DNA of 64,000 bases, from NCBI GenBank assembly GCA_946401865.1, contig CAMIVO010000002.1, positions 2,781 through 66,780 of the forward strand, in the 5' to 3' direction. The translations under genes and the position numbers were made by a program. This DNA is from an uncultured Clostridia bacterium (GTDB lineage Bacteria > Bacillota > Clostridia > TANB77 > CAG-508). Below, one piece after another: positions 6,921-34,432 of this stretch (position 1 is the stretch's first letter; every line of letters begins with the position of its first letter). The notes beneath the pieces were generated by a model. That model was not told the DNA's origin. It ran no database searches and was given only the letters and a program-made list of their open reading frames with translations.

Positions 6921-7703
6921 TTAATAATTCCGACCTATTCCTGGAAGTAAACAAATATTAAAAATATTTGAACCTATTACATTACCAAGTGCTAAGTCAC
7001 TTTTTTTATTAATAGATGCAACCAATGAAGTTATAATTTCAGGCAGACTAGTTCCAATTGCTACAATTGTTATACTAACAATAGCTTCACTTAAATTAAA
7101 AATATTTGCAATTTGGATTGCACCATCTACAACAAAATCAGCCCCATATTTTAGAAATATTGCACCTACTAATAGATAACTAAATATTTTAAAATTGGAA
7201 ATTATTTTTTCATTTTCTTGAACTTTATCTTGATCAACTTTACTATTTCTATTTTCAACTTTTCCCTCATAAAGTGTATAAATAATATAACCTATGCTTA
7301 ATAGTATTAAAGCAAATGCTTCTATTCTAGTTATTTGATTCTGACCTCCAAAATTACAAAATATTCCTAAAATAACTACACTTATTATTGAAATTGGGAA
7401 ATGTATTTTAATTAGTCTTTTATCTATAAAAACAGGTTTACAAATTGACGCAATTCCTACAACTAATAAAATATTACAAATAGAACTACCTATTCCATTT
7501 CCTATTACTATATCTGATTTTCCAAGAATAGCAGACTTTATAGTTATTATTATCTCTGGCAAACTGGTTCCAATACCCACAATTAGTATTCCAATAATCA
7601 TTTCAGATATTTTCAATTTTTTTGCAAGTCCTGTTGCTCCTTTTACCATAAAATCCGCACCTTTTACTAACAAAACAAAACCTATTATCAATAAAAAAAT
7701 CAT
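6921..7703 (-). CDS. sodium/calcium exchanger (CaCA family) membrane protein
   Basis: Two alpha-repeat signatures GNGIGSSI and GNVIGSNIFNI; multi-TM hydrophobic profile. Confidence 0.7.
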   Translation of the reverse strand: MIFLLIIGFVLLVKGADFMVKGATGLAKKLKISEMIIGILIVGIGTSLPEIIITIKSAILGKSDIVIGNGIGSSICNILLVVGIASICKPVFIDKRLIKIHFPISIISVVILGIFCNFGGQNQITRIEAFALILLSIGYIIYTLYEGKVENRNSKVDQDKVQENEKIISNFKIFSYLLVGAIFLKYGADFVVDGAIQIANIFNLSEAIVSITIVAIGTSLPEIITSLVASINKKSDLALGNVIGSNIFNICLLPGIGRNY

Positions 7704-7757
7704 ATAAATATAGTTTCCTTTCTATATTTATATGATTTGTAATTTTCTTTTTTATAT

Positions 7758-8960
7758 TCAGTTTATTTTTAATTGTTTTATTCTATTTATTGCCTCTATT
7801 GAGTTTTCTTTTGTTCCAAACGCAGTTAGTCTAAGAAAGCCTTCTCCAAATACTCCGAATCCACTTCCTGGTGTTCCAACTACATTGGCCTTTTCTAAAA
7901 GCTCGTCAAAAAATTCCCAAGAAGTCATATTATTTGGTGTTTTAAGCCAAACATAAGGTGAATTTATTCCTCCATATACAGTAAACCCTGCTTCAATTAA
8001 CCCTTCTTTAATAATTTTAGCATTTTCTAAATAATCTTTTATATTTGCTTTAATCTGTTTCCTTCCTTCTTCTGAATATACCGCTTCTGCCGCTCTTTGT
8101 ATGACATACGCTGTTCCATTAAACTTCGTAGTAGTTCTTCTATTCCATAATTTGTTCATTTCAACTAAATCACCAGATTTAGTGTATCCTTTCACACTTT
8201 TTGGTATAACTACATATCCACATCTTAATCCTGTAAATCCTGCTGTTTTTGAATAACTTTTAAATTCTATTGCCACTTCTTTTGCACCTTCAATTTCATA
8301 TATGCTATGAGGAATGTTTTCTTCTGTAATAAATGCTTCATATGCAGCATCATATAATATAATTGATTTATTTTCTATAGCATAATCAACAAATTTTTTT
8401 AAATTTTGTTTTGAAATTGCCATACCTGTTGGATTATTTGGAAAGCATAAATATATTATATCTACCTTTTCTGTAGGTAATTCTGGTACAAAATTATTTT
8501 TTTCTAACACTGGCAAATATACAATATTTTTCTTTTTTCCTGACATAATATTTGTATCTACATAAACAGGATATACGGGATCTGTAATTGCTATTTTATT
8601 GTCTTCACCAAATATTTCAACAATATTACCACAATCACACTTTGCTCCATCTGATACAAATATTTCATCTAATTCAATTCCTAAATCTTTATATTCATTT
8701 TCAACAATTGCTTTTCTTAAAAATTCATATCCTTGTTCTGGCCCATAACCTCTAAATCCTTCAGAAGTTCCCATCTCATCTACTGCTTTATGCATAGCTT
8801 GAATAACAGCAGGAACAATAGGTTTTGTTACATCCCCTATTCCCAATTTTATAATTTTTTTATCTGGATTATTTTTTTGATATTCAGCTACCTTTTTGGC
8901 AATTGTTGAAAATAGATAACTATCTTCTAATTCTAAATAATTCTCATTAATTTTTGCCAT
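7758..8960 (-). CDS. dapL: LL-diaminopimelate aminotransferase
   Basis: [24 protein letters not shown]... N-terminus and aminotransferase class I fold; adjacent dapF. Confidence 0.85.
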
Positions 8961-9895: not shown

Positions 9896-11507
9896 TTAAA
9901 TATTCTTATGTTTTTTTGCAGAATTGATTAATTCAACAAATAATGGTGCTGGTCTATTTGGTCTTGATTTTAATTCTGGATGAAATTGGCCAGCAATAAA
10001 GTATGGATGATTTTTTAATTCTACAATTTCTACCAATTGTCCATCAGGAGATGTTCCTGAACATATTAATCCTGCTTCTTCTATTTTCTTTTTATATTCA
10101 TTGTTAAATTCAAATCTATGTCTATGTCTTTCATCAATTTTTTCTTTATTATACACCTTATAAGCTAAAGAATCCTTTTTTATAATACATGGATAACTTC
10201 CAAGTCTCATTGTTCCACCTTTTTTATATATGTTTTTTTGCTCCTCCATAATATGTATAACTGGATTATTTGTAGTAGTACTAAATTCAGCAGAATTTGC
10301 ATCTTTTAATCCTAAAACATTTCTAGCAAATTCAACTACTGCCATTTGCATTCCTAAACATATTCCCAAAAATGGTATTTTGTTTTCTCTTGCATATTTT
10401 ATTGTTTCTATTTTTCCTTCTATTCCTCTATTGCCAAATCCTCCAGGTACAATAATTCCGTCTATATCTTTTAATTTTTCTTTAACCGTATTTTCTGTAA
10501 TTGTTTCACAATCTATTAATTTAACATCAACTTTTACATCATTTTTATAACTTGCATGGTGTAAACTTTCTATTACTGATATATATGAATCTTCTAACTT
10601 TACATATTTTCCAACTATTGCAATTTTTACTTTATTTTCATTTTTTATACTTTTTATTTTATTAATCATTTCTTGCCATTCTGAGTTGTCAGGAACATAA
10701 TTATCTAATCTTAAATGATTACAAACTTCTCTTCCTAAGCCCTCCTTCTCAAGTAGTAAAGGGACCTCATATAAATTATCTGCTGTTAAATTTTGAATTA
10801 CACTAGTTTTTCTTACATTACAAAATAATGCAATCTTCTCTCTTATGTTATTTGGTATTTCGATTTCTGTTCTACAAACTAAAATATTTGGTTTTATTCC
10901 CAAACTTTGTAATTCTTTGACAGAGTGTTGTGTAGGCTTAGACTTAATTTCATTTGAACCTGTAATATATGGGAGCAGTGTTACATGTATATACAAAACA
11001 TCTTCTGGATTTTTTTCAAGACCAACTTGTCTAATTGCCTCTATAATAGATATGCCTTCTATATCTCCAATAGTACCTCCAATTTCTGTAATCACTATGT
11101 CTATTTCTTTGTCTTCAAAACTATATATATTAGATTTTATTTCATTTGTAACATGTGGTATAACTTGAACTGTTTTTCCTAAATAGTCTCCTCTTCTTTC
11201 TTTATCTATTACATTTGAATAGATTTTTCCCATAGTTACACTTGAATTTTTAGTTAAATTTTCATCTGTAAATCTTTCATAATGACCTAAATCAAGGTCT
11301 GTTTCTGCACCATCATCTGTTACAAAAACCTCTCCATGTTCATATGGATTCATTGTTCCTGGATCAACATTTAAATATGGGTCAAATTTTTGTATTGCAA
11401 CTTTATATCCTCTGTTTTTTAAAAGCCTACCAAGAGATGCAGCAGTTATCCCTTTACCTAATCCAGATACAACTCCTCCTGTAATAAAAATGTATTTTGT
11501 ATTCATA
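9896..11507 (-). CDS. pyrG: CTP synthase (true start MNTKYIF ~11506, ORF-track N-extension is spurious)
   Basis: [27 protein letters not shown]-loop start; C-terminal glutamine amidotransferase (GICLGMQ); GGGAGGAG RBS before internal Met. Confidence 0.9.
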
Positions 11508-11660
11508 TGCTCCTCCCTTCTAAAAACAAAAATAGACCTAAAAGAAAACCTTACTTTATTGGTTTTTTTTAAGTCTATAATTAATTTTTTATATAATAAC
11601 ATTTTTTTTTTCATAAATCAATAATTTTTTAATATTTTTTTTAAATACACAACAAAAATA

Positions 11661-12540: not shown

Positions 12541-14170
12541 TTACACAGCCTTTTTCTCATAAATCTTTTTAGCTACACTAAAATTATTATTTAATTCTTG
12601 TAGTGGTTTAAAGTTAAAATAAATATCAACTTGTTTGTCACTATGAATTTCAATTTTTTCTATAAATTCTCTAATTATTTCTTTAGTAGGATTTTTTATT
12701 TTTAAAAATTCTTCTACTAAATTATCTAATCTACTTTTATTCTTGTCTATATCTTTTTCTCCAGATAATTCTTGTTCAAATTCTTTTATTGATTGTTCGT
12801 AACTTTTCACAATTTCTTTTATTCTCTCTGCATTTTTCATATATTCTTCAAGAGATATAATGCCTGCAAGCCTATCTTCGTACATTACTTCTAATTTTCT
12901 TGTTTCTTTTTCAATATTTTGTTTAAAAGAATCAATTTGATTTTTCAAGTCAAATTCTTGGACTTGTTTAGACTTTGTTTGTTTTGCAATTTCTTCTAAT
13001 TTCTTTTTGTTTTTATATTCTCTGCAAACCTCTCTTAAAACCTCTAACATCTGTTCTTCAAAAACTTGATAATTGAAATTGTGTGGTGAACATACATCAA
13101 ATTTTCCAAATCTTCCATATCTTTGACATCTGCCATAAATATTTCCGTTTTTATCTGGACTTCTAATTCCAATATAGCCTCCACAGTCATAACATCTAAG
13201 TAATCCTTTAAATAAATAATCATTTTGAACTACTCTTGAGCCTTTTGTTGCTTCAATTACTCTTTTTGCTCTTTCGAAATCTTCTTTACTAATTATAGCT
13301 TCATGCATATTCTCTACTTTTACCCAATCTTCTTCAGGTAAATTTATAAATTTCTTTGATTTAAAACTCACCTTTTTTCTCTTGCCTTGTATTACTGTTC
13401 CTGTATATATTTCATTTGAAAGAATAAATCTTACAGTAGATTGTTGCCATAGCCCATAAGTTAAAGATTTTGCTCTTCTATTTCTTTTATTATAATCTGA
13501 CGGAATTGGAATTTTCTTTTTACTTAAGTAATCTGCAATTTGCATTGTACCAAAACCTGCTAAATATTTTTCATATATCAGTTTTACAACATTTGCTGCC
13601 TCTTTATCTATTATTAAATGGTATTTGTTTTCTGGATCTTTTTTATAGCCATAAGGTGCTGTTCCTAAATATTCTCCATTATTTCTTTTTGCTTGTAATA
13701 CACTGTTTATTTTCTTTGATGTATCTTTAGCATACATTTCATTTAATATTGATTTAAACGGTGCTATATCGTTATTTGAATTATCGAAAGCCGTATCTAT
13801 ATTGTCTAATATTGCAACAAATCTAACTTCATGTTCTGGAAAATAATTTTCAATATATAAACCTGATTGCACATAGTTTCTACCAAGTCTTGATAAATCT
13901 TTTGTAATAACCATATTTATTTTACCGAGATTCAATATCTGCAATCATTCTATTAAATGAAGGTCTATCAAAACTTGTCCCACTTACTCCGTCATCAACG
14001 TATTCTGATATAAAATTTAATTTATTCTGTCTAATATATTGCATTAGCAAAGTTCTTTGGTTACCAATACTTTCACTTTCTTGATACTTTTCTTTTTCTT
14101 CATCTTCTCTTGAAAGTCTAATGTATATACCTACTTTATAATCAATATTATTCATTATTGTATAGCTCAA
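12541..14170 (-). CDS. large serine recombinase (TnpX/TndX-like), split by a +1 frameshift near 13930-13944
   Basis: 13922..14170 encodes resolvase catalytic N-domain (GIYIRLSREDE...); 12541..13944 continues with VITKDLSRLGRN, recombinase domain, zinc ribbon CYDCGG...C and coiled coil; removing one c in tctCggtaaaata restores ...DIESGKINMVITKDLSRLGRN. Confidence 0.8.
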
Positions 14171-14713: not shown

Positions 14714-15751
14714 TTGTTTGATGTGGAGGTGTTTTATTTGAGTTTTAAACTAGCTTTTGATAAAAATCTCGGACTAGAATTATTTGTTTTTAAACGCATA
14801 TATTATGATAAAAGTAAAAAGATATTTTTTTCATCATATAGAACTGAGCATATGATTGACCCAATAGGTTCTTTTCTTCTTATATTTTTAAATACAAATT
14901 TTGAAGATGATGAAGATTGCAGATCTTTTGTTTTTTGGTTTTGTTTTGAAAGCTTATATTATAGAAGACATCCTGAAACAAAGAAAGCAAATCATAATTC
15001 ATCAAAACATTTAAGGCTTTCATTCTCTGAATTTAATAATGAATTAAATGAAATTGTAAAGGAATATAAAGAAGAATTTTTATACCTTAAATATACTTTA
15101 TTAAAAAATCTAAGATTACCATATGATACTGATTTTTTCAAAAAAATTGAAGAAGAAGCAGAATTTACTCCAGAAGACATACAGGAAATGAGACAAGATG
15201 AAAAAAGCTTTTTAGAAGATAAATCAATTAAATATAATGAAACAGAAATAAATGGATTTATGGAGAAATTAAATATACAATTCGAGACTTTTGGTCTAAT
15301 TTTTGATAATATAAATATTGAAAAGTATAATATTCCTTACTACTTTGAGAGTGAAGATATTTGGGCTATAATAGCTCTTTTATTTAAAGAATTTATGTCT
15401 GATAATCATAATACTATAAGACAATGCCAAAATTGTGGATATTACTTTGTTCCATCAAATTTAAAAGAAACTAAATATTGCAATGTAGAATATAAAGAAA
15501 CTGGCAAAACTTGTAGGCAAATTGGAAAAGAATTAGCTTATAAAAAATCTCTAAAAGAAGATACTCTTTTAGATAAATATAGGAAAAGATATATGTCTCT
15601 TGCAAGCTCTGTTTCACATTATGGAACAGATACTGCCATTACTAGATTTGAAAAGTATAAAAAAGATGGAGCTGTAATGAAACAAAAATATCTAAATAAA
15701 GAAATTACCCCAAAAGAATTTGAAAAATGGATTTCAGATAGCAAAAAATAG
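14714..15751 (+). CDS. hypothetical protein with C-terminal Cys4 zinc-ribbon (CQNCGYY...KYCN...C); true start uncertain (ORF-track start is TTG)
   Basis: 345-aa ORF; zinc-ribbon motif RQCQNCGYYFVPSNLKETKYCNVEYKETGKTCRQ; convergent with 899-aa gene. Confidence 0.45.
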   Translation: MFDVEVFYLSFKLAFDKNLGLELFVFKRIYYDKSKKIFFSSYRTEHMIDPIGSFLLIFLNTNFEDDEDCRSFVFWFCFESLYYRRHPETKKANHNSSKHLRLSFSEFNNELNEIVKEYKEEFLYLKYTLLKNLRLPYDTDFFKKIEEEAEFTPEDIQEMRQDEKSFLEDKSIKYNETEINGFMEKLNIQFETFGLIFDNINIEKYNIPYYFESEDIWAIIALLFKEFMSDNHNTIRQCQNCGYYFVPSNLKETKYCNVEYKETGKTCRQIGKELAYKKSLKEDTLLDKYRKRYMSLASSVSHYGTDTAITRFEKYKKDGAVMKQKYLNKEITPKEFEKWISDSKK

Positions 15752-15790: not shown

Positions 15791-18490
15791 TTAGCCTATT
15801 TCCTTATCTTTTTCATTCTGCTGTTCCATAATTTGCGAAACTTGATAATTAATTTGGCTCGTCCTTATTGTAGTAGTTGCACTAACTCCACTTTCTATTA
15901 ATCCTTGTTTATTACAAATCATATTTGCAATTTCTTCACTTTCAAATAAATTATCTCTAATATCTTCTTCACTTAAACCATTTATAGTTTTCAAGCTATG
16001 ATAGATTTGTCTTAAAACTTCCAGATTTTTTTCATTTATTTCTACGTTTCTAACACCACTTATTAATTTATCAATTAATAATTCTTGCCCCATATCATAA
16101 GAATCTGACTCTATTGATATATCAGCATTTTTAAATAATCCTATTACCCTACATATATTTTCTAAATCATATTCCAATAGACCTTGTTCATAATCCTCAT
16201 TTTTAGGATAGGCAGATTTTAAAAATGTAATTATGTCATCGATTTGTTTTGAATTGAAACTATGTTCTAATAAGAAAAATCTAATAGGATCAGGAATTAC
16301 ATTATCTGTATCTTGAAAACTATCGAAATAGTCGGATAATCTTTTGCTATTATTTTTATTTTCTAATCCTGTTAGACATTTTTTTAATTTTTCTTCTAAC
16401 TCATTTCTTTGTTCACTATTTATTTCGCTTGTATTTTGCAGTTTTTCTTGCATAATTGAACAAATTCTTTTTGCCATCACGTCGCTTATACCTAAAAGTT
16501 TTTGATTATTATCATCTAATAGCATTAAACATATATCAAAATTCGTGTCATTAAAAAGCATTGAGCTATCAGTTTCTAGAAACTGATTAATACAAGCCCT
16601 TAATAAGAGATTAGTTTTGTCTTTTTCTTTAGTAAAAGCAAGTAATGTTTCGACATTAAAGTTTGGGGAAATCCTTATATTTCCATAATCAGAATTCATT
16701 ATACAATCTAATATTTCATATTCATTTTCTATTTCATATCCATATTTTTTTAATGTACTAATTGCTACACCCACATCATCATATAAATCTAAATTATTAA
16801 AAATCAATCCATCTTCAATGTTTTCTCTTACTTCATGTGGTAACTGTCCTATTTTTATTAATAATCCAATATCATCAATTTTATCTGTATATGTTATGTA
16901 AGTAGCTATATTATTTTCCAGTCCAAATAAATTACTTATGTCATTTTTTGATAGTGAAGAATAATCAATGTTGTTTAATATCTCAATAATACTTAAAATA
17001 CTGTCTGGATTTATCTGTAATAAAGGAACATTGTATATATATAGTATTTTTTGTAAATCTTCATTAGGAAGATTTATCTTTGACAAAACTTCTAATAAAT
17101 TATCATTTAAATAAAACATTGTATTTTCATCATCTTCTACTTGCTTATCATATTGTGTTTTATCAAATTTATTCCCAACCTTTTTATTTAAAAACTCTAA
17201 TATACTTGAATAATTATCTTCATCATTAAGTACATGATATTGAGCAAGAAAGTGAATAATATCACTAGTATTCGTTACTTCTTTTTCATTCATTATTTCT
17301 TGAAAAATATCAAATGGTATGCCACCTGTCAAAGACATAATTTCTTCAAAATTTGATGAATTCTCTTTATTAATTTCATACCAACCTTTAATAAGCAATT
17401 TTATAAAATCACTATAACCCCATTTAGAACAAATTTCTTTAATTTTGCCATTTGACTTTTTGCTTAATTCTTGTATATCTTCTACACTTAAACAAGAGAA
17501 TACTTGTTGTACATTATCTCTACGAATATTTGAAAAATCATTTTTTTGTAACCATTCATATTTAAGTTTATTCTCATAATATATTGCATCCATTATTGAA
17601 CAATCAACTGAATATAATGCAGGTTCTTCTCCATTAGTATGTTGTTTAATACCAGTTTCATCAATAGGATAATTAATATGATTTGCTAGTATGTTTCTTA
17701 ATTTTTTAGACGCTTGTGGTAAATATTCTGCTGTATTATTTTTAACTCCAAGTTGATTTCTTACATTAGGTAAATCTTCAGTCAAAATCATTCTCAAATG
17801 ATATCCTAATGTTTTTTCACACATATCTACAAATTTATCTTTTGAACCAAAAAAATACTCCCTTACAGCATCTATATCTATATTTTTATTTTGCAATGCA
17901 TACATAATACTACGAGTAAAATCTCCTTCACTAATATATGAATTTTGTTCATAGTATCCATTATTGTTTGCCAATTCATCATTTTCTTGTTCAGATATAC
18001 AATTTATTCTATTTCCTTTTTGTATGTAATTATTGATACTCATTTCTGCAAACAAATCTACAAGTGCTTCTTCAACAACGGCATTAACTTCCCCCTTTGA
18101 AATTAAATCCGAAAAAGCATGTGCATATTCATGTATAATAACATGTATTAGATCAATAGTATTACTATTATTTCTACAATAATTTTCTGTTAAACATATC
18201 TTTTCTTCTGTAGGACTATAGTATGCAGAACATGCTGCAGCATTTTTTGGATCTCTATCTATTTCTATTGTTAAAGTAGCAATAATGTATGTGATTTTTT
18301 CAATAATATCTTGTCCAACTATTTCATTTGCAAATGTAAGAATTATATTGCCTGCCTCTTCTATAGCATCATGCATTTGTTCAATTGTTATTGGTTCTAA
18401 ATCTTGTGTTGGTTCTTCTTTTTCTTCTATATCATCAATTTCCCAATCATCATCATTGTTTTTTATAGTTCCTTCATCATTACTATTCAT
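15791..18490 (-). CDS. 899-aa protein with N-terminal SprT-like/zincin HExxH domain (IDLIHVIIHEYAHAF), acidic N-terminus, long helical C-terminal region
   Basis: HEYAH motif in SprT-like context (TLLHEMIHA-type); no TM; last gene of a 5-gene minus-strand operon on the element. Confidence 0.5.
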   Translation of the reverse strand: MNSNDEGTIKNNDDDWEIDDIEEKEEPTQDLEPITIEQMHDAIEEAGNIILTFANEIVGQDIIEKITYIIATLTIEIDRDPKNAAACSAYYSPTEEKICLTENYCRNNSNTIDLIHVIIHEYAHAFSDLISKGEVNAVVEEALVDLFAEMSINNYIQKGNRINCISEQENDELANNNGYYEQNSYISEGDFTRSIMYALQNKNIDIDAVREYFFGSKDKFVDMCEKTLGYHLRMILTEDLPNVRNQLGVKNNTAEYLPQASKKLRNILANHINYPIDETGIKQHTNGEEPALYSVDCSIMDAIYYENKLKYEWLQKNDFSNIRRDNVQQVFSCLSVEDIQELSKKSNGKIKEICSKWGYSDFIKLLIKGWYEINKENSSNFEEIMSLTGGIPFDIFQEIMNEKEVTNTSDIIHFLAQYHVLNDEDNYSSILEFLNKKVGNKFDKTQYDKQVEDDENTMFYLNDNLLEVLSKINLPNEDLQKILYIYNVPLLQINPDSILSIIEILNNIDYSSLSKNDISNLFGLENNIATYITYTDKIDDIGLLIKIGQLPHEVRENIEDGLIFNNLDLYDDVGVAISTLKKYGYEIENEYEILDCIMNSDYGNIRISPNFNVETLLAFTKEKDKTNLLLRACINQFLETDSSMLFNDTNFDICLMLLDDNNQKLLGISDVMAKRICSIMQEKLQNTSEINSEQRNELEEKLKKCLTGLENKNNSKRLSDYFDSFQDTDNVIPDPIRFFLLEHSFNSKQIDDIITFLKSAYPKNEDYEQGLLEYDLENICRVIGLFKNADISIESDSYDMGQELLIDKLISGVRNVEINEKNLEVLRQIYHSLKTINGLSEEDIRDNLFESEEIANMICNKQGLIESGVSATTTIRTSQINYQVSQIMEQQNEKDKEIG

Positions 18491-18499
18491 TTAATACTC

Positions 18500-18733
18500 C
18501 TAATCTATCCTAATATTTGGGTTCATCTCTTGTGTTGTTTTCCATTCAATTCCATATTTTTCTTTTAATAATTTCTTTTTATAATTTTCAAAAATATGTA
18601 TATATCCTAAACCTTTTTTTATGCCTTTATCTTTTAATATTTTGTCAGTTTCTAACTCAACTTCCTGAAATATTTTTTTATATTCTTCTTTATCTTCTAC
18701 ACTATCATGTTTGAGCATAATATAAACCTCCAA
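18500..18733 (-). CDS. hypothetical small protein
   Basis: 77-aa ORF tightly packed in operon. Confidence 0.35.
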   Translation of the reverse strand: MEVYIMLKHDSVEDKEEYKKIFQEVELETDKILKDKGIKKGLGYIHIFENYKKKLLKEKYGIEWKTTQEMNPNIRID

Positions 18734-18740
18734 TCAATCA

Positions 18741-19193
18741 TTATCTTTTTATAAGATTTAATATAAATCTTTTTATTTTCTTAAATATAGAATCTTCCTT
18801 ATATTCTACCAATGCTGTTTGTGAATGTTGATTAAATTCAATGTTCTTCTGTTTATTTTTAAATAAATTGTCAGGATTATACTTTTCTCTCAGTTTTATT
18901 TGATATTCATTCTCATTATTATCGTATATCTTTTTTAATCTTTGTTTTTCTGTTTCATCCTCACACCAATATTGTAGATTAAGCAGTGCAATTAATGCTA
19001 ATGTTTCTTCTTTCAAATTCTGCTCTTTAATTGGTCTATTTGGATTTATTTCCTTTGAGTAATTTATATCTCTATTATTTTTAAAATACTCCCTTAATTT
19101 TTGTGGTATTTTATTTTTGTTATATTCATCTAATAAATTTATAAAAGTATCTATTTCCGTATATGCTTGTCTTGTTGCTATTGAAAGACTCAT
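18741..19193 (-). CDS. hypothetical protein
   Basis: 150-aa ORF in operon. Confidence 0.4.
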   Translation of the reverse strand: MSLSIATRQAYTEIDTFINLLDEYNKNKIPQKLREYFKNNRDINYSKEINPNRPIKEQNLKEETLALIALLNLQYWCEDETEKQRLKKIYDNNENEYQIKLREKYNPDNLFKNKQKNIEFNQHSQTALVEYKEDSIFKKIKRFILNLIKR

Positions 19194-19212
19194 ATATTCC
19201 CCTTCTTTCGTT

Positions 19213-20283
19213 TTATTGTTGTATATCCTCTATTTTTTCTGTCTTATCATTTTGATGTTCTTGTATTATCGTTGTTGCAACTTTTTCTACTTGCTCAGTT
19301 CTTACAGATAAAGTCGTTGCATCAATTGCACTTTCCAGTAAATCCATTCTTAACATACTAAACATATCTGCTAAACTTGAATCACTTGTTTCTTTTGGCT
19401 TACTACCATGAATGCTATTAACTAAATCATTCTTTCTTTCATCATCTAGTTTATATCTTGTATCAGTTGTTATAAATTCTGCTTTAATATCTTCTAATTT
19501 TTCTGGAGCTGTTTGTGTGATATATTTTTCAAACTCATCTTGAGCAAGTTGAATATATTCATGCATTTTTCTTATATCTTCTTCTGTAAATTCAGCATCT
19601 TCTTTTCCATTTGCTCCATATCTTAATTCATATATTCCATCTATAGCTGCACTATACCTGTCATAGTTAGCAAATTTATTAAATCTTGCAATTAATTCAT
19701 TTAATCTATCCATATTTTCATCATTTTGCATACTTATGAGTTCGTCTAATGTTATGCCCATTGATGTACAAAATAGCTTGTTTAATTTATCTTCAACTTG
19801 ATACCTTACCATATCTGTTTGAAAGCTTAAATTAAATGCATCAAATGATGTAGTTCTAATATTATTATTTGCAAATGATTTTGCCATTTCAATTGCAAAT
19901 CTATCTGTAATTGATTCATTTTGACCTATTCCATTTCCACTATGTTGCTGATGTAATCCAACATGACTATTATCAATATGCTTTGTATTATCCCAATCAA
20001 TATACTAATCTAATATGTGTTTTTCTTCATGTAAAATAAGTGTTATTGCATCTCCTTCAGTTGTAATTTGATTTATATTAAATCCTAGTGTTTGAATATT
20101 AGGATTAAAATATGCTAATCCATGTGAATCATCAAGTTCTTGTATATCTTTATTTATAATACTTCTTAATTTGTCTTCTAATTCTTCCTTTTTACTTGGA
20201 TCAAAATATCCTTTATCAATCCCCAATGAAATGATTTTATTGCTTACATCTATAAATATTCTCATAAAATCTTCACGAGTCAT
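19213..20283 (-). CDS. HExxH (HEEKH) protein, 357 codons in one frame interrupted by an in-frame TAG at 20005-20007
   Basis: Strong RBS AGAGGTGGAAT-ATG at 20283; ORFs 20005..20283 and 19213..19887 are in same frame; downstream Met lacks RBS; sequence across stop reads HEEKHILD*YIDWDNTKHIDNSHVGLHQQHSGNGIGQ... Confidence 0.5.
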
Positions 20284-20379: not shown

Positions 20380-21567
20380 CTACATCTCCATCTCTAAATC
20401 TTTTTCTTTTTCTTCATGTTTTATTTGTTTTTCAGCATCTAACAAAATATTATTTTCTCGTTCAAAGTCCCTAATCAAATTATTTTCAGCACCCATATCA
20501 AACTTTTTGCAAATCCACGTTATAAATATATCAATAGTTTCCTTAAATCTATCTACTACTTTGTGTAAAAAGCTATTTTCTTTTTCTAATTTATTGATTC
20601 TATTAGTATATTGCCATTCCATTTCAAATTCTTTTTTATTATATTCTTTTTTTATATTATCTACTTCATCGTGTAATTTTTCATTATCAGCTATTATTCT
20701 ATCTCTTTCTTTTTGGTATTTTTCTGCCTCTTCTATAACCTGTGCTTGTCTTGATAATTGCCTATGTAAATTCATATTATCTTGTTATAAATTTTGAATT
20801 ACATTATCCTTTGGTTTTATAATTTCTTCTAGGATTTTTTCATCTCTTTTCCTTGATAATCTATTTATATTAATATCTGTTATATCAGGAATATCTGGTA
20901 ATTCCAATTTCATATTATTCAAAATTTCTTTAGTCTGTTTAAAATTTGTTATTTTCTTATATTCTTCAACAGAATAATGCTCTCTACCTGTTTCCTCTTT
21001 TGACAATCCTCTTTGCAGGTTAAATCCATTTTCCACCATATACTTGTAAAAAGCATCTTGTAGTTGTCTGTAACTGTCTTTTGCTTTCCAAAATTCACTA
21101 CAAGCCAATTTATCAATAGAATTCCCTTTTTTATCTGTTGTATGAATTACTGGTAAAAATACTAAATGCATATGAGGCGTTTGTTCGTCCATATGCACTT
21201 TTGCAGACATTATATATTGTTCTCCTAAGTCTTTGTATTCAGATACAAATTTATATGCGGTTTCAAAAAATCTCTTTGTTTCTTCTTCTCCTATTCCTTC
21301 AAAATAATCATGATCTGATGTTATTATATATTCACAAGCTATATTACTTACTGTTTTAATTTGTCCTTTTAAATTATATTTTTCTTTTATTCTGTCAAAT
21401 TCCTTTTCATAACTATATTGTGGAGTTTTTAGTGAATAGTTTAAATATGATTTTTCTTTATCTATATTTTCATTTGAATAATTTTTATTTCTTCTTTCAT
21501 TGTGTCTAAATATTCCTTTTAAATTTTCTCTTTTGTATTTTGTATTTCTAATAATTGCATAACTCAT
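20380..21567 (-). CDS. MobV-family (Mob/Pre) relaxase; relaxase domain (20785..21567) and coiled-coil C-terminus (20380..20775) separated by in-frame TAA
   Basis: MSYAI(I)RNTKYKR... N-terminus and HMDEQTPHMHLVF HxDE..PHxH motif; ...VIQNL*QDNMNLHRQ... same frame, no RBS before downstream Met. Confidence 0.75.
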
Positions 21568-21659: not shown

Positions 21660-21750
21660 TGTAACACAACTACAACACTTTTTTATGCTACCGCAAAAAA
21701 GTGTTAGTTGTGGCAGGGAAAAATTTTTCCCCACACCCCATTTTTCCAAA
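21660..21750. promoter_or_regulatory. candidate oriT for the MobV relaxase
   Basis: Imperfect IR caactacaacactttttt / aaaaaagtgttagttgtg with AGTGTT-AG resembling pMV158-type nick region GTGTG-TT; second IR ggggaaaaatttttccc; location just upstream of mob. Confidence 0.35.
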
Positions 21751-32800: not shown

Positions 32801-34432
32801 TATTTTTTATTTAATCTTTCTACTTCTTCTAGTCCGCTTCGAATAACTTCTTCATCATAATTTTCTGTTTCTTTATTGGATTGTTTACAATCCCCAAGTA
32901 AGCAAAAATAAAGGTTTTGTGATTTGTTTGCAATATAATCTATTTCTAGGTTTTTAAACATTTCTTTTACTTTTTCTCTAGAGTCTACTATTGTAGGTAT
33001 TATTACAAAAGTAGAAGCATTTTCTGGAATTCCACTTTCAAAGTTCATTTTAGGAATTATTTTAGGTTTAACAAGTTTACTTAAAATATATTGTAAAAGT
33101 TGAATTATAATTTCTGAAATTGGAATAAATAAAACTAAAAAACTGCTAAGCTTTATCCACATTTTTTTATTACTTTGTGGAAAATATGTTGCAAATAATC
33201 CTGATATAATAAAAGTTAATACAAATATAGTACCAATATATAATTTTGTTTTTTTATTTTTACTTAATACTTTTTTCTCTTTGCATTGCAATTTTTCCAA
33301 TAAAATATTTATATTTTCATCTTGTAAATAATAACCTATATGCGCTTTTTTACTTTTATAATTTTCCTCATATGCTTTAGTTGCTAATTCCAATATTTTT
33401 TTTGAAATATACATCTCCGAAATTTTGGTCTTTTTGGAAATTTCTTTTATAGTATTTCTATAACTTTCTTTTGTTTTAAAATCCATTTTATCATATACTT
33501 TTGCAGGATCTAGTTTTAATATTTCTTCTACTTTATTTATATTTTCAAATATTTCTAGAAAATTAATTCTTTGTAATTTTTTTATAGATGTAATTGCATT
33601 TCCAATAGCAATTTTATTTATTGCAATATCGAAATGCTCTCTTTTGGTTATTTCTGAAACTGATGCACCTGTTTTCTCAACTTCTTCATTTAATATTTTT
33701 AAAAAATTTTCTGTTTTTTTACCATATTTTTTTAGTTTATAAGACATATATTCAACAAATGGATATTTTATATCATACATTTTTATTTTTATATTTTTTG
33801 AATTTTTATAAATATTATATTTTCTTTCACTTCTAGGTTTTCTTTCTACTAACCTTTCTATCATAGCTTCAACTCTTAATTTTTCATATTGAGAAATATA
33901 AATACTTTCAGCAATTTGCCTTATATTTTCTATAATCGCTATTTGCATAAATATGCCTATATTCCATATTTCATCCATACTTAAATTTTTCTTTTCTTGA
34001 TATGCCTTTAAACTTTCTTCTAAAATCTCTCTACTTATTTTATTTTCTGTATAATTTACAATTTGTGATGCTAATACATATATTCTTGCAAAGCCTTGAT
34101 ATTTTCCGATTTGAAAGTCCTACAAAATTTTTATATTTTTTTAATGTCATTTCTTTTTCAATAGACCTTACCACTTCTTCTATTACATAAAAATTATCTA
34201 ACAACCATTCACCAGCTGGATGAATTTGAATTTTATTTTTCACATTTTCATTTAGTAAATTATATACTTCTTTTATTACCTCATAATTTTCCATCATTCT
34301 TGGTATTGGATAAGTAATTTTATTACTTTTTTGGCAAATTGTATGACCTGCAGCTAATTTTTCTAAATAACCATAAAGCTCTTGCTTATTTAGCAGAGCT
34401 CCTTCAATTGATAATTTTCTATAATTACTCAT
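26835..34432 (-). pseudogene. GT84 glycosyltransferase + GH94 glucan synthase/phosphorylase gene (cyclic beta-1,2-glucan synthase-like), N-terminal ~2530 codons, with frameshifts at ~30985-30992 and ~34060-34080
   Basis: N-term AGEWLLDNFYVIEE and IAIIENIRQIA blocks; GT DxD (ITLDADTDL); DLLASEARQAS; GH94 RENGGQYTH at junction; ORFs 34040..34507 / 30955..33978 / 26739..30992 overlap in different frames; start MSNYRK at ~34432 with GAGGGA RBS. Confidence 0.7.

Follow-up and report, generated by a model that had tools for sequence, protein, structure and literature searches.

The 64,000-nucleotide stretch of contig CAMIVO010000002.1 from an uncultured Clostridia bacterium (assembly GCA_946401865.1; called here, in its whole length, the window) carries a mobilisable element of the serine-recombinase/MobV type, and within this element lies a minus-strand gene cluster whose largest member encodes an 899-amino acid (aa) protein, the giant. 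The conserved unit in this cluster is a three-gene operon in which a gene for a basic 150-aa protein (p150) is followed by one for a 72-aa protein (p72) and then by the gene of the giant, and low-GC Clostridia carry this trio in eight or more genomic settings. By its structural model and its conserved residues the giant's N-terminal domain is a predicted zinc endopeptidase of the gluzincin type, whose family is absent from the libraries that were searched, and the C-terminus of the giant is a short tail that it shares with unrelated proteins encoded close to p150 genes. The loci bearing homologues of these genes that were collected for comparison are designated by L numbers (L001, etc.).

An earlier note on this DNA, made from its letters and a list of its open reading frames (ORFs), had described a five-gene operon here. 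The ORF list bears out the frames and coordinates that were given, and the string of genes is real, but it consists of four genes, since one of them, named here for its HEEKH motif, is cut in two by an amber codon; nor do the five behave as a unit, as the comparison of synteny across loci keeps only p150, p72, and the giant together. The gaps between genes of the cluster are 9-22 nt, and the p72 stop codon lies 9 nt before the start of the giant. At the base composition of the window stop codons make up a random share of ∼8.8%, from which the chance of an 899-codon open frame is calculated to be ∼1e-36, so the giant's frame is not a product of chance, and intact homologues of all four cluster genes are present elsewhere. 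The gene listed at 77 aa is most likely 72 aa long and begins at the ATG at 18718, since most of its homologues are 72-73 aa in length. The view that the cluster is uncharacterised holds: its four genes fall below threshold in Pfam, NCBIfam, PHROGs, and PADLOC, and in PADLOC-DB 2.0 there is no match for the giant, p72, or the HEEKH ORFs and only KwaB (E = 0.004, 14.6 bits) for p150. A promoter scan was uninformative in this AT-rich DNA (56 sites vs 59 expected), and a search of Rfam gave only a distant tRNA; the G+C content is ∼25% throughout the window, and the host genome is of the low-GC Clostridia type.

Seventeen relatives of the giant occur among 5.8 billion clustered proteins, and 185,579 species representatives contain 6 loci, all in metagenome-assembled genomes (MAGs) of uncultured Clostridia. 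A zincin ORF starts a few bases past every close p72, in 15 new low-GC loci as well as in the loci compared earlier, and p150 is directly upstream of p72 in 13 of those 15; in one of the other two, p72 lies at the start of the contig. The settings of the trio include a sister MobV/serine-recombinase element (L015-18; L015 is the closest related element), tyrosine-integrase islands (L074-76), the L001 element, and various chromosomal sites, and in both MobV elements (those of the window and L015) the trio is directly downstream of mobV and in the same orientation. On chromosomes it lies between mfd and spoIIID/efp (L022), after holB/lepB (L009), near tyrS (L077), or, in the type to which most of the metagenome loci belong, near ruvB with a small GNAT gene on one side and the gene of a CDF transporter on the other (L003/L006), and at several of these sites no integrase, relaxase, or type IV secretion system (T4SS) gene is present within ∼10 kb. 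The trio is a module that is mobile between elements and chromosomes. Neither it nor the giant has a match in 72,556 plasmids, 50,697 phages, or IMG/VR, and an origin in a phage or plasmid is thus unsupported. The tyrosine-integrase island (about 5560-16763 in L074-L076) is ∼11 kb long and is the same in two genomic backgrounds (L074/L075); it holds genes for small transmembrane (TM) proteins, a HEEKH-type zincin, p150, a protein with two TM segments, tailed proteins, p72, the giant, and a 590-aa tyrosine integrase, and it has no relaxase gene. The p150 variant of this island occurs in 126 listed blocks of the collection.

The giant consists of an acidic disordered N-terminus, the zincin domain, an alpha-helical region of ∼575 aa, and the C-terminal tail; it is a soluble, acidic protein with an isoelectric point (pI) of 4.4 and has no hydrophobic segment and no signal peptide. 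The acidic N-terminus and helical remainder that had been noticed earlier are both borne out, as the pI of residues 1-35 is 4.05 and the AlphaFold2 (AF2) model is all-helical past residue 285. The predicted local distance difference test (pLDDT) score is 82 for the model of the whole protein and 92.7 for the model of the domain (residues 30-285). The domain model displays two helices, strands at 45-49, 60-63, and 68-72, and helices at 83-100 (containing HExxH) and 108-128 (containing the EE pair), which fits the zincin core of a three-stranded sheet, an HExxH helix, and a next helix that supplies a ligand (PMC5512222). Residues H120, E121, H124, E140, E141, E149, N153, Y155, and Y185 are invariant in an alignment of the 17 relatives, and in 133 homologues of the domain the HExxH is conserved at 99-100%, E141 at 100%, E140 at 91%, and Y185 at 96%; the HExxH motifs to which the earlier note drew attention are thus genuine and belong to conserved metallopeptidase domains. 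H120 and H124 are predicted to be zinc ligands and E121 the catalytic base, and E141, which lies 17 residues past the second His within an (E)EGxAxxFAE motif, should be the third ligand. Since this is a zincin core with Glu in that role, the domain is of the gluzincin type, and both the fold and the ligands of clan MA(E) are found in the domain model and in the pattern of conservation. A profile search of 1.84 billion representatives places the domain (∼200 residues) in 182 proteins, in which it may be N-terminal, central, or C-terminal.

This domain is below threshold in Pfam, NCBIfam, PHROGs, PADLOC, PDB, and BFVD. Sequence-profile searches of PDB, made for the giant and its domain as well as for p150 and p72, were without result, the domain aligning only with the HExxH turn of myroilysin; a fold search of PDB with the whole giant model gave only non-significant alpha-solenoid matches, and Foldseek searches of PDB and BFVD with the domain model gave none at E < 0.04. 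Zincins make up nearly all of the domain's weak fold matches, among them IrrE-like, SprT-like, and M48 proteins, lethal factor, and peptidases of polyvalent proteins, and together with the sub-threshold library scores these matches make the giant a new family of a known fold that is not SprT-like. The SprT-like label that had been given to the giant is therefore dropped. With the SprT-like profile (PF10263) the full-length giant scores 16.3 bits and the isolated domain 18.6 bits, vs a gathering cut-off of 25.6; any match at all is present in only 9 of 31 diverse members (best E = 0.0017), and an ArdC-N domain is absent. Enzymes of the SprT/Spartan/Wss1 type take their third zinc ligand from a His a short way past HExxH, but in the giant family no His is conserved after H124, and it is E141, on the helix that follows, that is invariant.

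Residues 286-860 of the giant are all-helical and without a significant match, and they diverge fast beside the conserved protease domain. Locus L022 (10229-15723) carries tandem giants of 892 and 894 aa, in which ∼600 nt of catalytic-domain DNA are 100% identical, the middle helical regions are 23-41% identical in protein, and the C-terminal parts are ∼60% identical. This indicates a candidate gene conversion or a recent duplication with a swapped middle region, and the pattern of identity appears to be that of diversifying effectors. Three of 72 distant relatives of the domain have a TM helix and then NlpC/P60, in some cases CHAP or SpoIID, wall hydrolases; in the Pfam search of these relatives SpoIID was present in one of the three. 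Domain fusions were set aside as a clue to function, the remaining 69 having no notable Pfam domain.

The p150 protein has a pI of 9.1 and a strongly amphipathic basic C-terminal helix (EDSIFKKIKRFILNLIKR), with the highest hydrophobic moment at residues 133-150. Its family has 4605 homologues and includes tandem-domain variants, and the variant of the L006-type locus (P0290) is present on 203 metagenome contigs. In L009 a short p150-like gene overlaps the start of the gene for the CCA-adding enzyme. The p72 protein is the most conserved partner in the trio, with 51-93% identity where the giants have 28-78%. Outside the trio of the Firmicutes, many unrelated bacteria of 32-61% G+C have a p72-like domain, with sequences that end in ...ILKEKYGIxWKSPxEMNPxxxFD; it stands alone or ends larger ORFs, which as read from the sequence are of the AAA+ type in L048 and the winged-helix type in L047. 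This domain, unnamed in any library, was seen in L041-L062, L068, L073, L019, L023, and L024; the distant p72-like gene of L023 adjoins Hachiman genes, and that of L024 adjoins a restriction endonuclease (REase)-like gene. About 7.5 kb downstream of the trio in L035, L036, L039, and L040 there is a second, diverged p72-like gene (67-73 aa) followed directly by further zincin-domain ORFs, and this second pair looks like another copy of the p72-zincin pairing.

The two ORFs of the HEEKH gene share one frame, which is interrupted by a single TAG three codons past HEEKH; at this position P0037 and the 354-aa L074 orthologue (60% identical) have Gln. Intact orthologues are present in L074 and in L077 (315 aa). 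In the window protein HEEKH is followed by NESITDRFAIEM, which corresponds to EEALVDLFAEM after HEYAH in the giant, and the C-terminal end is LLESAIDATTLSVRTEQV. The alignment of this protein to the zincin domain profile is weak, and that of the L077 orthologue has E = 1e-6. The gene is frameshifted in L001/L002 and truncated in several metagenome fragments; L015 lacks it, as do the trio loci on chromosomes other than L077. By these sequence features it is a diverged, tailed zincin paralogue that is an optional member of the cluster and a pseudogene in the window. Recoding or read-through of TAG is not the explanation, since TAG is the ordinary stop codon of 9 long window ORFs, including those of housekeeping-type genes; the lesion in mobV (see below) is a TAA. 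The grouping of the 224-aa ORF (P0019) with 540-aa proteins P0020-P0033 at "90% identity" was rejected as a clustering artefact (BLASTP E = 0.098).

The C-terminal tail is ∼30 residues long and has the consensus [LI][LI]xS[AG][VI]xA[ST]...R/T..Q[IV], followed by a Q/E-rich end. A profile built from giant tails only was searched against 928 ORFs, where it matched the L001 HEEKH orthologue (E = 1e-7), a 362-aa zincin with the motif HEDIH (1e-4), and the window HEEKH protein (7e-4), and nothing beyond the tailed protein types had E < 0.4 in this set; a GH10-like protein has a weaker tail-like end (E = 0.48) that stands at the top of the noise. The tail is common to paralogous zincins (of the HEEKH and HEDIH types) and to proteins without a recognised domain. 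Each of the expanded clusters (L074, L077, and L001) encodes 3-4 tail-bearing proteins, and in these clusters a gene for a two-TM protein of ∼155 aa comes right after p150; L074 has small TM proteins as well. The survey set for the tail comprised 1.05 Mb of the collected loci with 5835 ORFs, in which every tail match with p150 in view lies ≤5.3 kb from the p150 gene and no match lies outside the clusters. In L080-82, which have no p72 or giant, the gene after p150 encodes a protein of 458 aa, part of which resembles the tail (E = 3e-5, from a small search).

These features can be brought together in a tentative reading, possible rather than probable, in which the tail serves as an address tag with p150 as its reader, the tagged effectors leave the cytoplasm, and p72 silences the protease. 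The tag would be read by one shared partner, and p150 is the best candidate since it has a basic, membrane-seeking amphipathic C-terminal helix and is the sole gene common to the tail-bearing clusters for which upstream sequence is available; it would act at the membrane as an adaptor. The tagged enzymes would be effectors that work outside the cytoplasm of the producer, after being exported or passed to another cell. As the best-conserved partner of the giant, and one whose gene invariably comes immediately before it, p72 may be the silencer, binding the protease domain and keeping the giant silent in the producer as an inhibitor, an immunity protein, or a chaperone. On the window element the trio would then be cargo and not transfer machinery. 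The address-tag reading is consistent with the synteny of the trio in many independent settings, the constant pairing of a close p72 with a zincin ORF, the invariance of the catalytic residues and the well-modelled zincin core, the three other protein types matched by the giant-tail profile, the confinement of the tail to the neighbourhood of p150, the clusters with several tailed proteins, the p150 and tail-like protein of L080-82, the two-TM protein beside p150, the pattern of diversification in L022, and the NlpC/P60 fusions in 3 of the 72 relatives. A more far-reaching version, which seems unlikely, would make the tail a new protein-sorting signal of low-GC Clostridia, with p150 as its membrane receptor and p72 as inhibitor or immunity protein, in a hitherto unrecognised effector-delivery route carried on small islands and mobilisable elements. 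By this route hydrolases without signal peptides, in a set that varies (the three types of zincin, perhaps the GH10-like enzyme, and others), would leave the cell or enter another.

A number of observations weigh against the address-tag reading. The contacts between p150 and the tail and between p72 and the protease are inferred from co-occurrence, no recognised secretion or transfer machinery is present beside any of the loci, and signal peptides and TM segments are absent from all of the proteins. The window, L015, and chromosomal trios have no TM partner gene and a single tailed protein each. The p150 family is far larger than that of the giant, and a p150-like gene adjoins cca in L009, so that the function of p150 may be a broader one. 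The p72-like domains of unrelated bacteria with high GC content, which stand alone or are fused to AAA+ or winged-helix proteins and have no neighbouring zincin, are a poor fit to a dedicated inhibitor, and p72 is more conserved than the protease that it would inhibit. Finally, the chromosomal copies and the neighbouring defence genes suit an intracellular defence function equally well.

Such a function is the main alternative: the trio might be a defence or abortive-infection module in which the helical region senses an invader protein and the zincin cleaves a host or invader target, while p72 and p150 restrain the giant or place it at the membrane where DNA enters. This seems somewhat unlikely, but much of the distribution agrees with it, namely the sporadic occurrence (the 6 loci among 185,579 species representatives) on mobile elements and varied chromosomal sites alike, as is the case for defence systems, as well as the AbiEii/AbiEi genes on the window element, the PDC-S13 candidate on the L015 element, and the distant p72-like genes beside Hachiman and REase-like genes. 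The fast-diverging helical part next to a conserved protease domain also speaks for it, and the trio is intact in the window where three genes of the element are broken, although with three lesions only this would happen by chance with a calculated probability of ∼0.15. On the other hand, no trio gene has a PADLOC match, no NTPase or nucleic-acid-sensing domain is present, and the chromosomal neighbours are mostly housekeeping genes and not defence islands; the presence of one tail on several enzymes of a single cluster, perhaps including the GH10-like one, would also be left unexplained. Much less likely is a part in ordinary cellular proteolysis, in which a regulatory or quality-control protease system peculiar to certain lineages of Clostridia, linked for example to sporulation or the envelope, would simply have been picked up by the element. 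Its chromosomal copies do lie among core genes (mfd, spoIIID, efp, holB, lepB, ruvB, and tyrS), all of its parts are under purifying selection, and the L006-type locus is common in metagenomes (the 203 contigs with P0290), but the chromosomal position differs from lineage to lineage, the trio is rare across species and has been captured repeatedly by at least three kinds of mobile elements, and tandem duplication with diversification and variable sets of tailed paralogues also count against it.

The earlier note had favoured an establishment or anti-defence role like that of SprT/ArdC-type proteins. In such a role the proteins would accompany the DNA into the recipient by way of the T4SS of a helper element and destroy restriction or other defence proteins there, and the tail would be a translocation signal. 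The trio is directly downstream of mobV and co-oriented with it in both MobV elements, and if nicking occurs as in pMV158 (PMC5863519), upstream on the mobV coding strand (at the candidate origin of transfer, oriT, at 21665-21745), then the trio DNA would enter first, an order of entry that is taken from the pMV158 analogy only. Leading regions are enriched in anti-defence genes (PMC11541004), zincins are the commonest domain among the effectors that accompany the DNA of phages and conjugative elements on its way in (PMC5512222), and a C-terminal tag common to several proteins is what a coupling protein might recognise. By the same analogy, however, the transferred strand would be the sense strand of the trio, the opposite of the orientation of the known leading-region anti-defence genes, which use the transferred strand as template (PMC11541004). 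The trio and its tail are moreover equally conserved at the chromosomal sites that have no integrase, relaxase, or T4SS within ∼10 kb and on the L074 island, which has no relaxase; there is no match in the plasmid and phage collections (72,556 and 50,697 entries), and by its profile scores and domain make-up the giant is neither a SprT-like nor an ArdC protein. An establishment role is thus quite unlikely, and the address-tag reading remains the one that is tentatively preferred here.

The window element is an island of ∼14 kb between housekeeping flanks, pyrG (9896-11614) and a GH94 gene (from 26739). It contains genes for a large serine recombinase and DUF6076, the cluster itself, and genes for a MobV relaxase, HTH_36, UPF0158, DUF1186/SEC-C, and AbiEii/AbiEi, and these profile matches agree with the earlier placement of the cluster on a serine-recombinase mobile element. 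The AbiEii toxin and DUF6088 (AbiEi-like) gene pair lies at the far end (24834-26447), and the UPF0158 (22583-22984) and DUF1186/SEC-C (23003-24580) genes are between it and the replication and mobilisation genes. The recombinase gene has a 1-nt insertion (tctCggtaaaat) near 13925, within the catalytic domain, that causes a frameshift. The mobV gene is cut by a TAA at codon 261 (20785-20787) into ORFs of 260 and 131 aa, which represent one 392-aa gene since the L015 relaxase is a single 392-aa protein with Tyr at this codon; a "coiled-coil protein" of 131 aa is thus the C-terminal part of the relaxase. The candidate oriT has two strong hairpins and includes a block, GGGGTGTGGGGA...TCCCTGCCA, that is conserved in L015, and its position upstream of mobV matches that of the pMV158 oriT (PMC5863519). 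The lesions in the recombinase, mobV, and HEEKH genes suggest that the element has been immobilised and is decaying, with the trio and the AbiE pair intact. The coordinates of these features are collected in Table 1.

Table 1 Features of the trio cluster and its carrier element, in positions of the window
Feature	Position	Strand	Basis
Large serine recombinase gene	12541..14170	minus	Resolvase, Recombinase, Zn_ribbon_recom, DUF4368 on two overlapping ORFs
Giant, 899 aa	15791-18490	minus	ORF; 17 homologues; AF2 model
Giant tail, residues 861-899, motif LIESGVSATTTIRTSQI then Q/E/K-rich end	15794..15910	minus	Shared with unrelated proteins
Gluzincin-type metallopeptidase domain (predicted), residues 36-285	17636..18385	minus	AF2 domain model
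E140-E141, E141 the predicted third zinc ligand	18068..18073	minus	Conservation in 133 homologues
HEYAH motif, residues 120-124 (H120 E121 H124)	18119..18133	minus	Invariant in 17 family members
p72, 72 aa	18500..18718	minus	ORF from ATG 18718, homologue lengths
77-aa ORF as listed	18733..18500	minus	ORF list
p150, basic 150-aa protein	18741-19193	minus	ORF, alignment, 4605 homologues
HEEKH gene, 357 codons read through	19213..20283	minus	In-frame TAG; intact orthologues elsewhere
HEEKH gene 3' ORF, 224 aa	19887..19213	minus	ORF list
HEEKH gene 5' ORF, 92 aa	20283..20005	minus	ORF list
HEEKH protein tail motif DLLESAIDATTLSVRTEQV	19261..19341	minus	Giant-tail profile, E = 7e-4
TAG nonsense codon 93, CAG->TAG	20005..20007	minus	Homologues have Gln
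HEEKH motif, residues 85-89	20017..20031	minus	Read from sequence
MobV relaxase gene	20380..21567	minus	Mob_Pre 4e-47, NCBIfam MobV 1e-38
Candidate oriT hairpins upstream of mobV	21665..21745	minus	Single-stranded DNA fold -20.6 kcal/mol, z = -4.9

The gene convergent to the cluster (14714..15751), whose Cys4 product was thought to match no family, has a Pfam match to DUF6076 (E = 2e-11). It was considered as a member of the module and rejected, since the convergent gene of L015 is unrelated and DUF6076 is not conserved beside the trio; searches of the literature on DUF6076 and on metalloprotease defence systems in Clostridia found nothing relevant. Beyond the island, at 26739-33978 of the window, a 1007-aa ORF without a Pfam match overlaps the start of a 1417-aa GH94/glucoamylase-like ORF by 38 nt, and the two may belong to a single very large gene of glucan metabolism or may be a coupled pair. 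In L015 a Bro-N protein (7687-8538) belongs to the PADLOC candidate defence family PDC-S13 (E = 9e-110). In L009 (5209-9191), from a rabbit-gut Clostridia MAG, the trio is followed by three tandem genes and a fragment with strong Pfam mTERF matches (to E = 2e-69), repeats that are unexpected in a bacterial genome; the p150-like gene described above for this locus lies past them.

The zincin fold class and large zincin-bearing proteins of mobile elements are a familiar theme, but the giant family is new to Pfam, NCBIfam, PHROGs, and PADLOC, and in spite of a high-confidence model it has no solved or viral-predicted structural neighbour. Its two dedicated partners, p150 and p72, are equally unannotated, and the 182 representative proteins that bear the domain are at present functional dark matter, for which the presence of the tail, beside p150, on unrelated enzymes offers a concrete handle. 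If the tail is a sorting or recognition tag, it would reveal a new mode of handling effector enzymes in Clostridia of the gut and mouth and would supply a simple sequence signature for finding further effectors, and the novelty would then be considerably greater. If the trio is a defence module, it would be a protease-based system from bacteria that are poorly represented in catalogues of defence systems.

Among known systems, the carrier resembles the Tn4451/Tn4453-type transposons of Clostridia, which have the same type of large serine recombinase (DUF4368), MobV, and an upstream oriT (PMC5704250). A large serine recombinase, MobV, and a candidate oriT are all present in the window, where the recombinase and relaxase genes are both disrupted. 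The cargo also differs, being catP in Tn4451/Tn4453 and the trio, AbiE, UPF0158, and DUF1186/SEC-C here.

The giant itself shares features with several groups of metallopeptidases. Its likeness to the SprT-like, Wss1, and Spartan proteins lies in an HExxH helix after a small sheet, and SprT-like is its best, though sub-threshold, Pfam match; unlike SprT and Spartan, however, it is without a zinc ribbon or DNA-binding region. With the ArdC anti-restriction proteins it has in common a metallopeptidase domain encoded on a transmissible element, but it has neither the single-stranded DNA-binding ArdC-N domain nor a sequence match to ArdC, and its peptidase is N-terminal and not C-terminal as in ArdC. 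The M1 aminopeptidases have an HExxH-x18-E arrangement with a "NEGFA" helix, which the (E)EGxAxxFAE of the giant recalls. Like these gluzincins the giant has HExxH and a Glu on the next helix, followed by a large helical domain, and IRAP, LTA4H, and BepA are among the non-significant fold matches of the whole model; but Peptidase_M1 matches only 1 of the 31 members (E = 0.041), and the M1 N-terminal beta domain and a conserved GxMEN exopeptidase motif are absent. The best (non-significant) viral fold matches of the domain are to proteins like IrrE, and the mobile-element context is shared with the ImmA/IrrE (M78) proteases, which belong to mobile elements and to regulators of the CBASS type. 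Here too the Pfam profile (Peptidase_M78) matches 1 of 31 members (E = 0.03), the giant is about four times larger, and there is no adjacent helix-turn-helix (HTH) repressor partner, as neither p150 nor p72 has an HTH match.

The tail has an analogy in the effectors of the bacteria-killing T4SS of Xanthomonas, which are tagged by XVIPCD, a C-terminal element of ∼120 residues. In both cases different enzymes carry one conserved C-terminal element with a Gln/Glu-rich end, and small cognate partner genes lie nearby; the tail is only ∼30 residues long, its hosts are Gram-positive, and no T4SS is known to read it, so that this is an analogy and no relation in sequence is claimed. A further parallel is with the metallopeptidase (MPTase) domains of polyvalent proteins, which have the same zincin core within very large proteins encoded by mobile elements (PMC5512222). 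Pfam MPTase-PolyVal matches only 1 of the 31 members that have the giant domain (E = 0.017), and where polyvalent proteins have two or more effector domains, the giant has one recognisable catalytic domain and ∼600 helical residues without a match; it also differs in its two small partner genes, its shared tail, and its occurrence on chromosomes as well. The giant is thus a new family, in a new gene arrangement, among the large zincin-bearing proteins of conflict and mobile systems.

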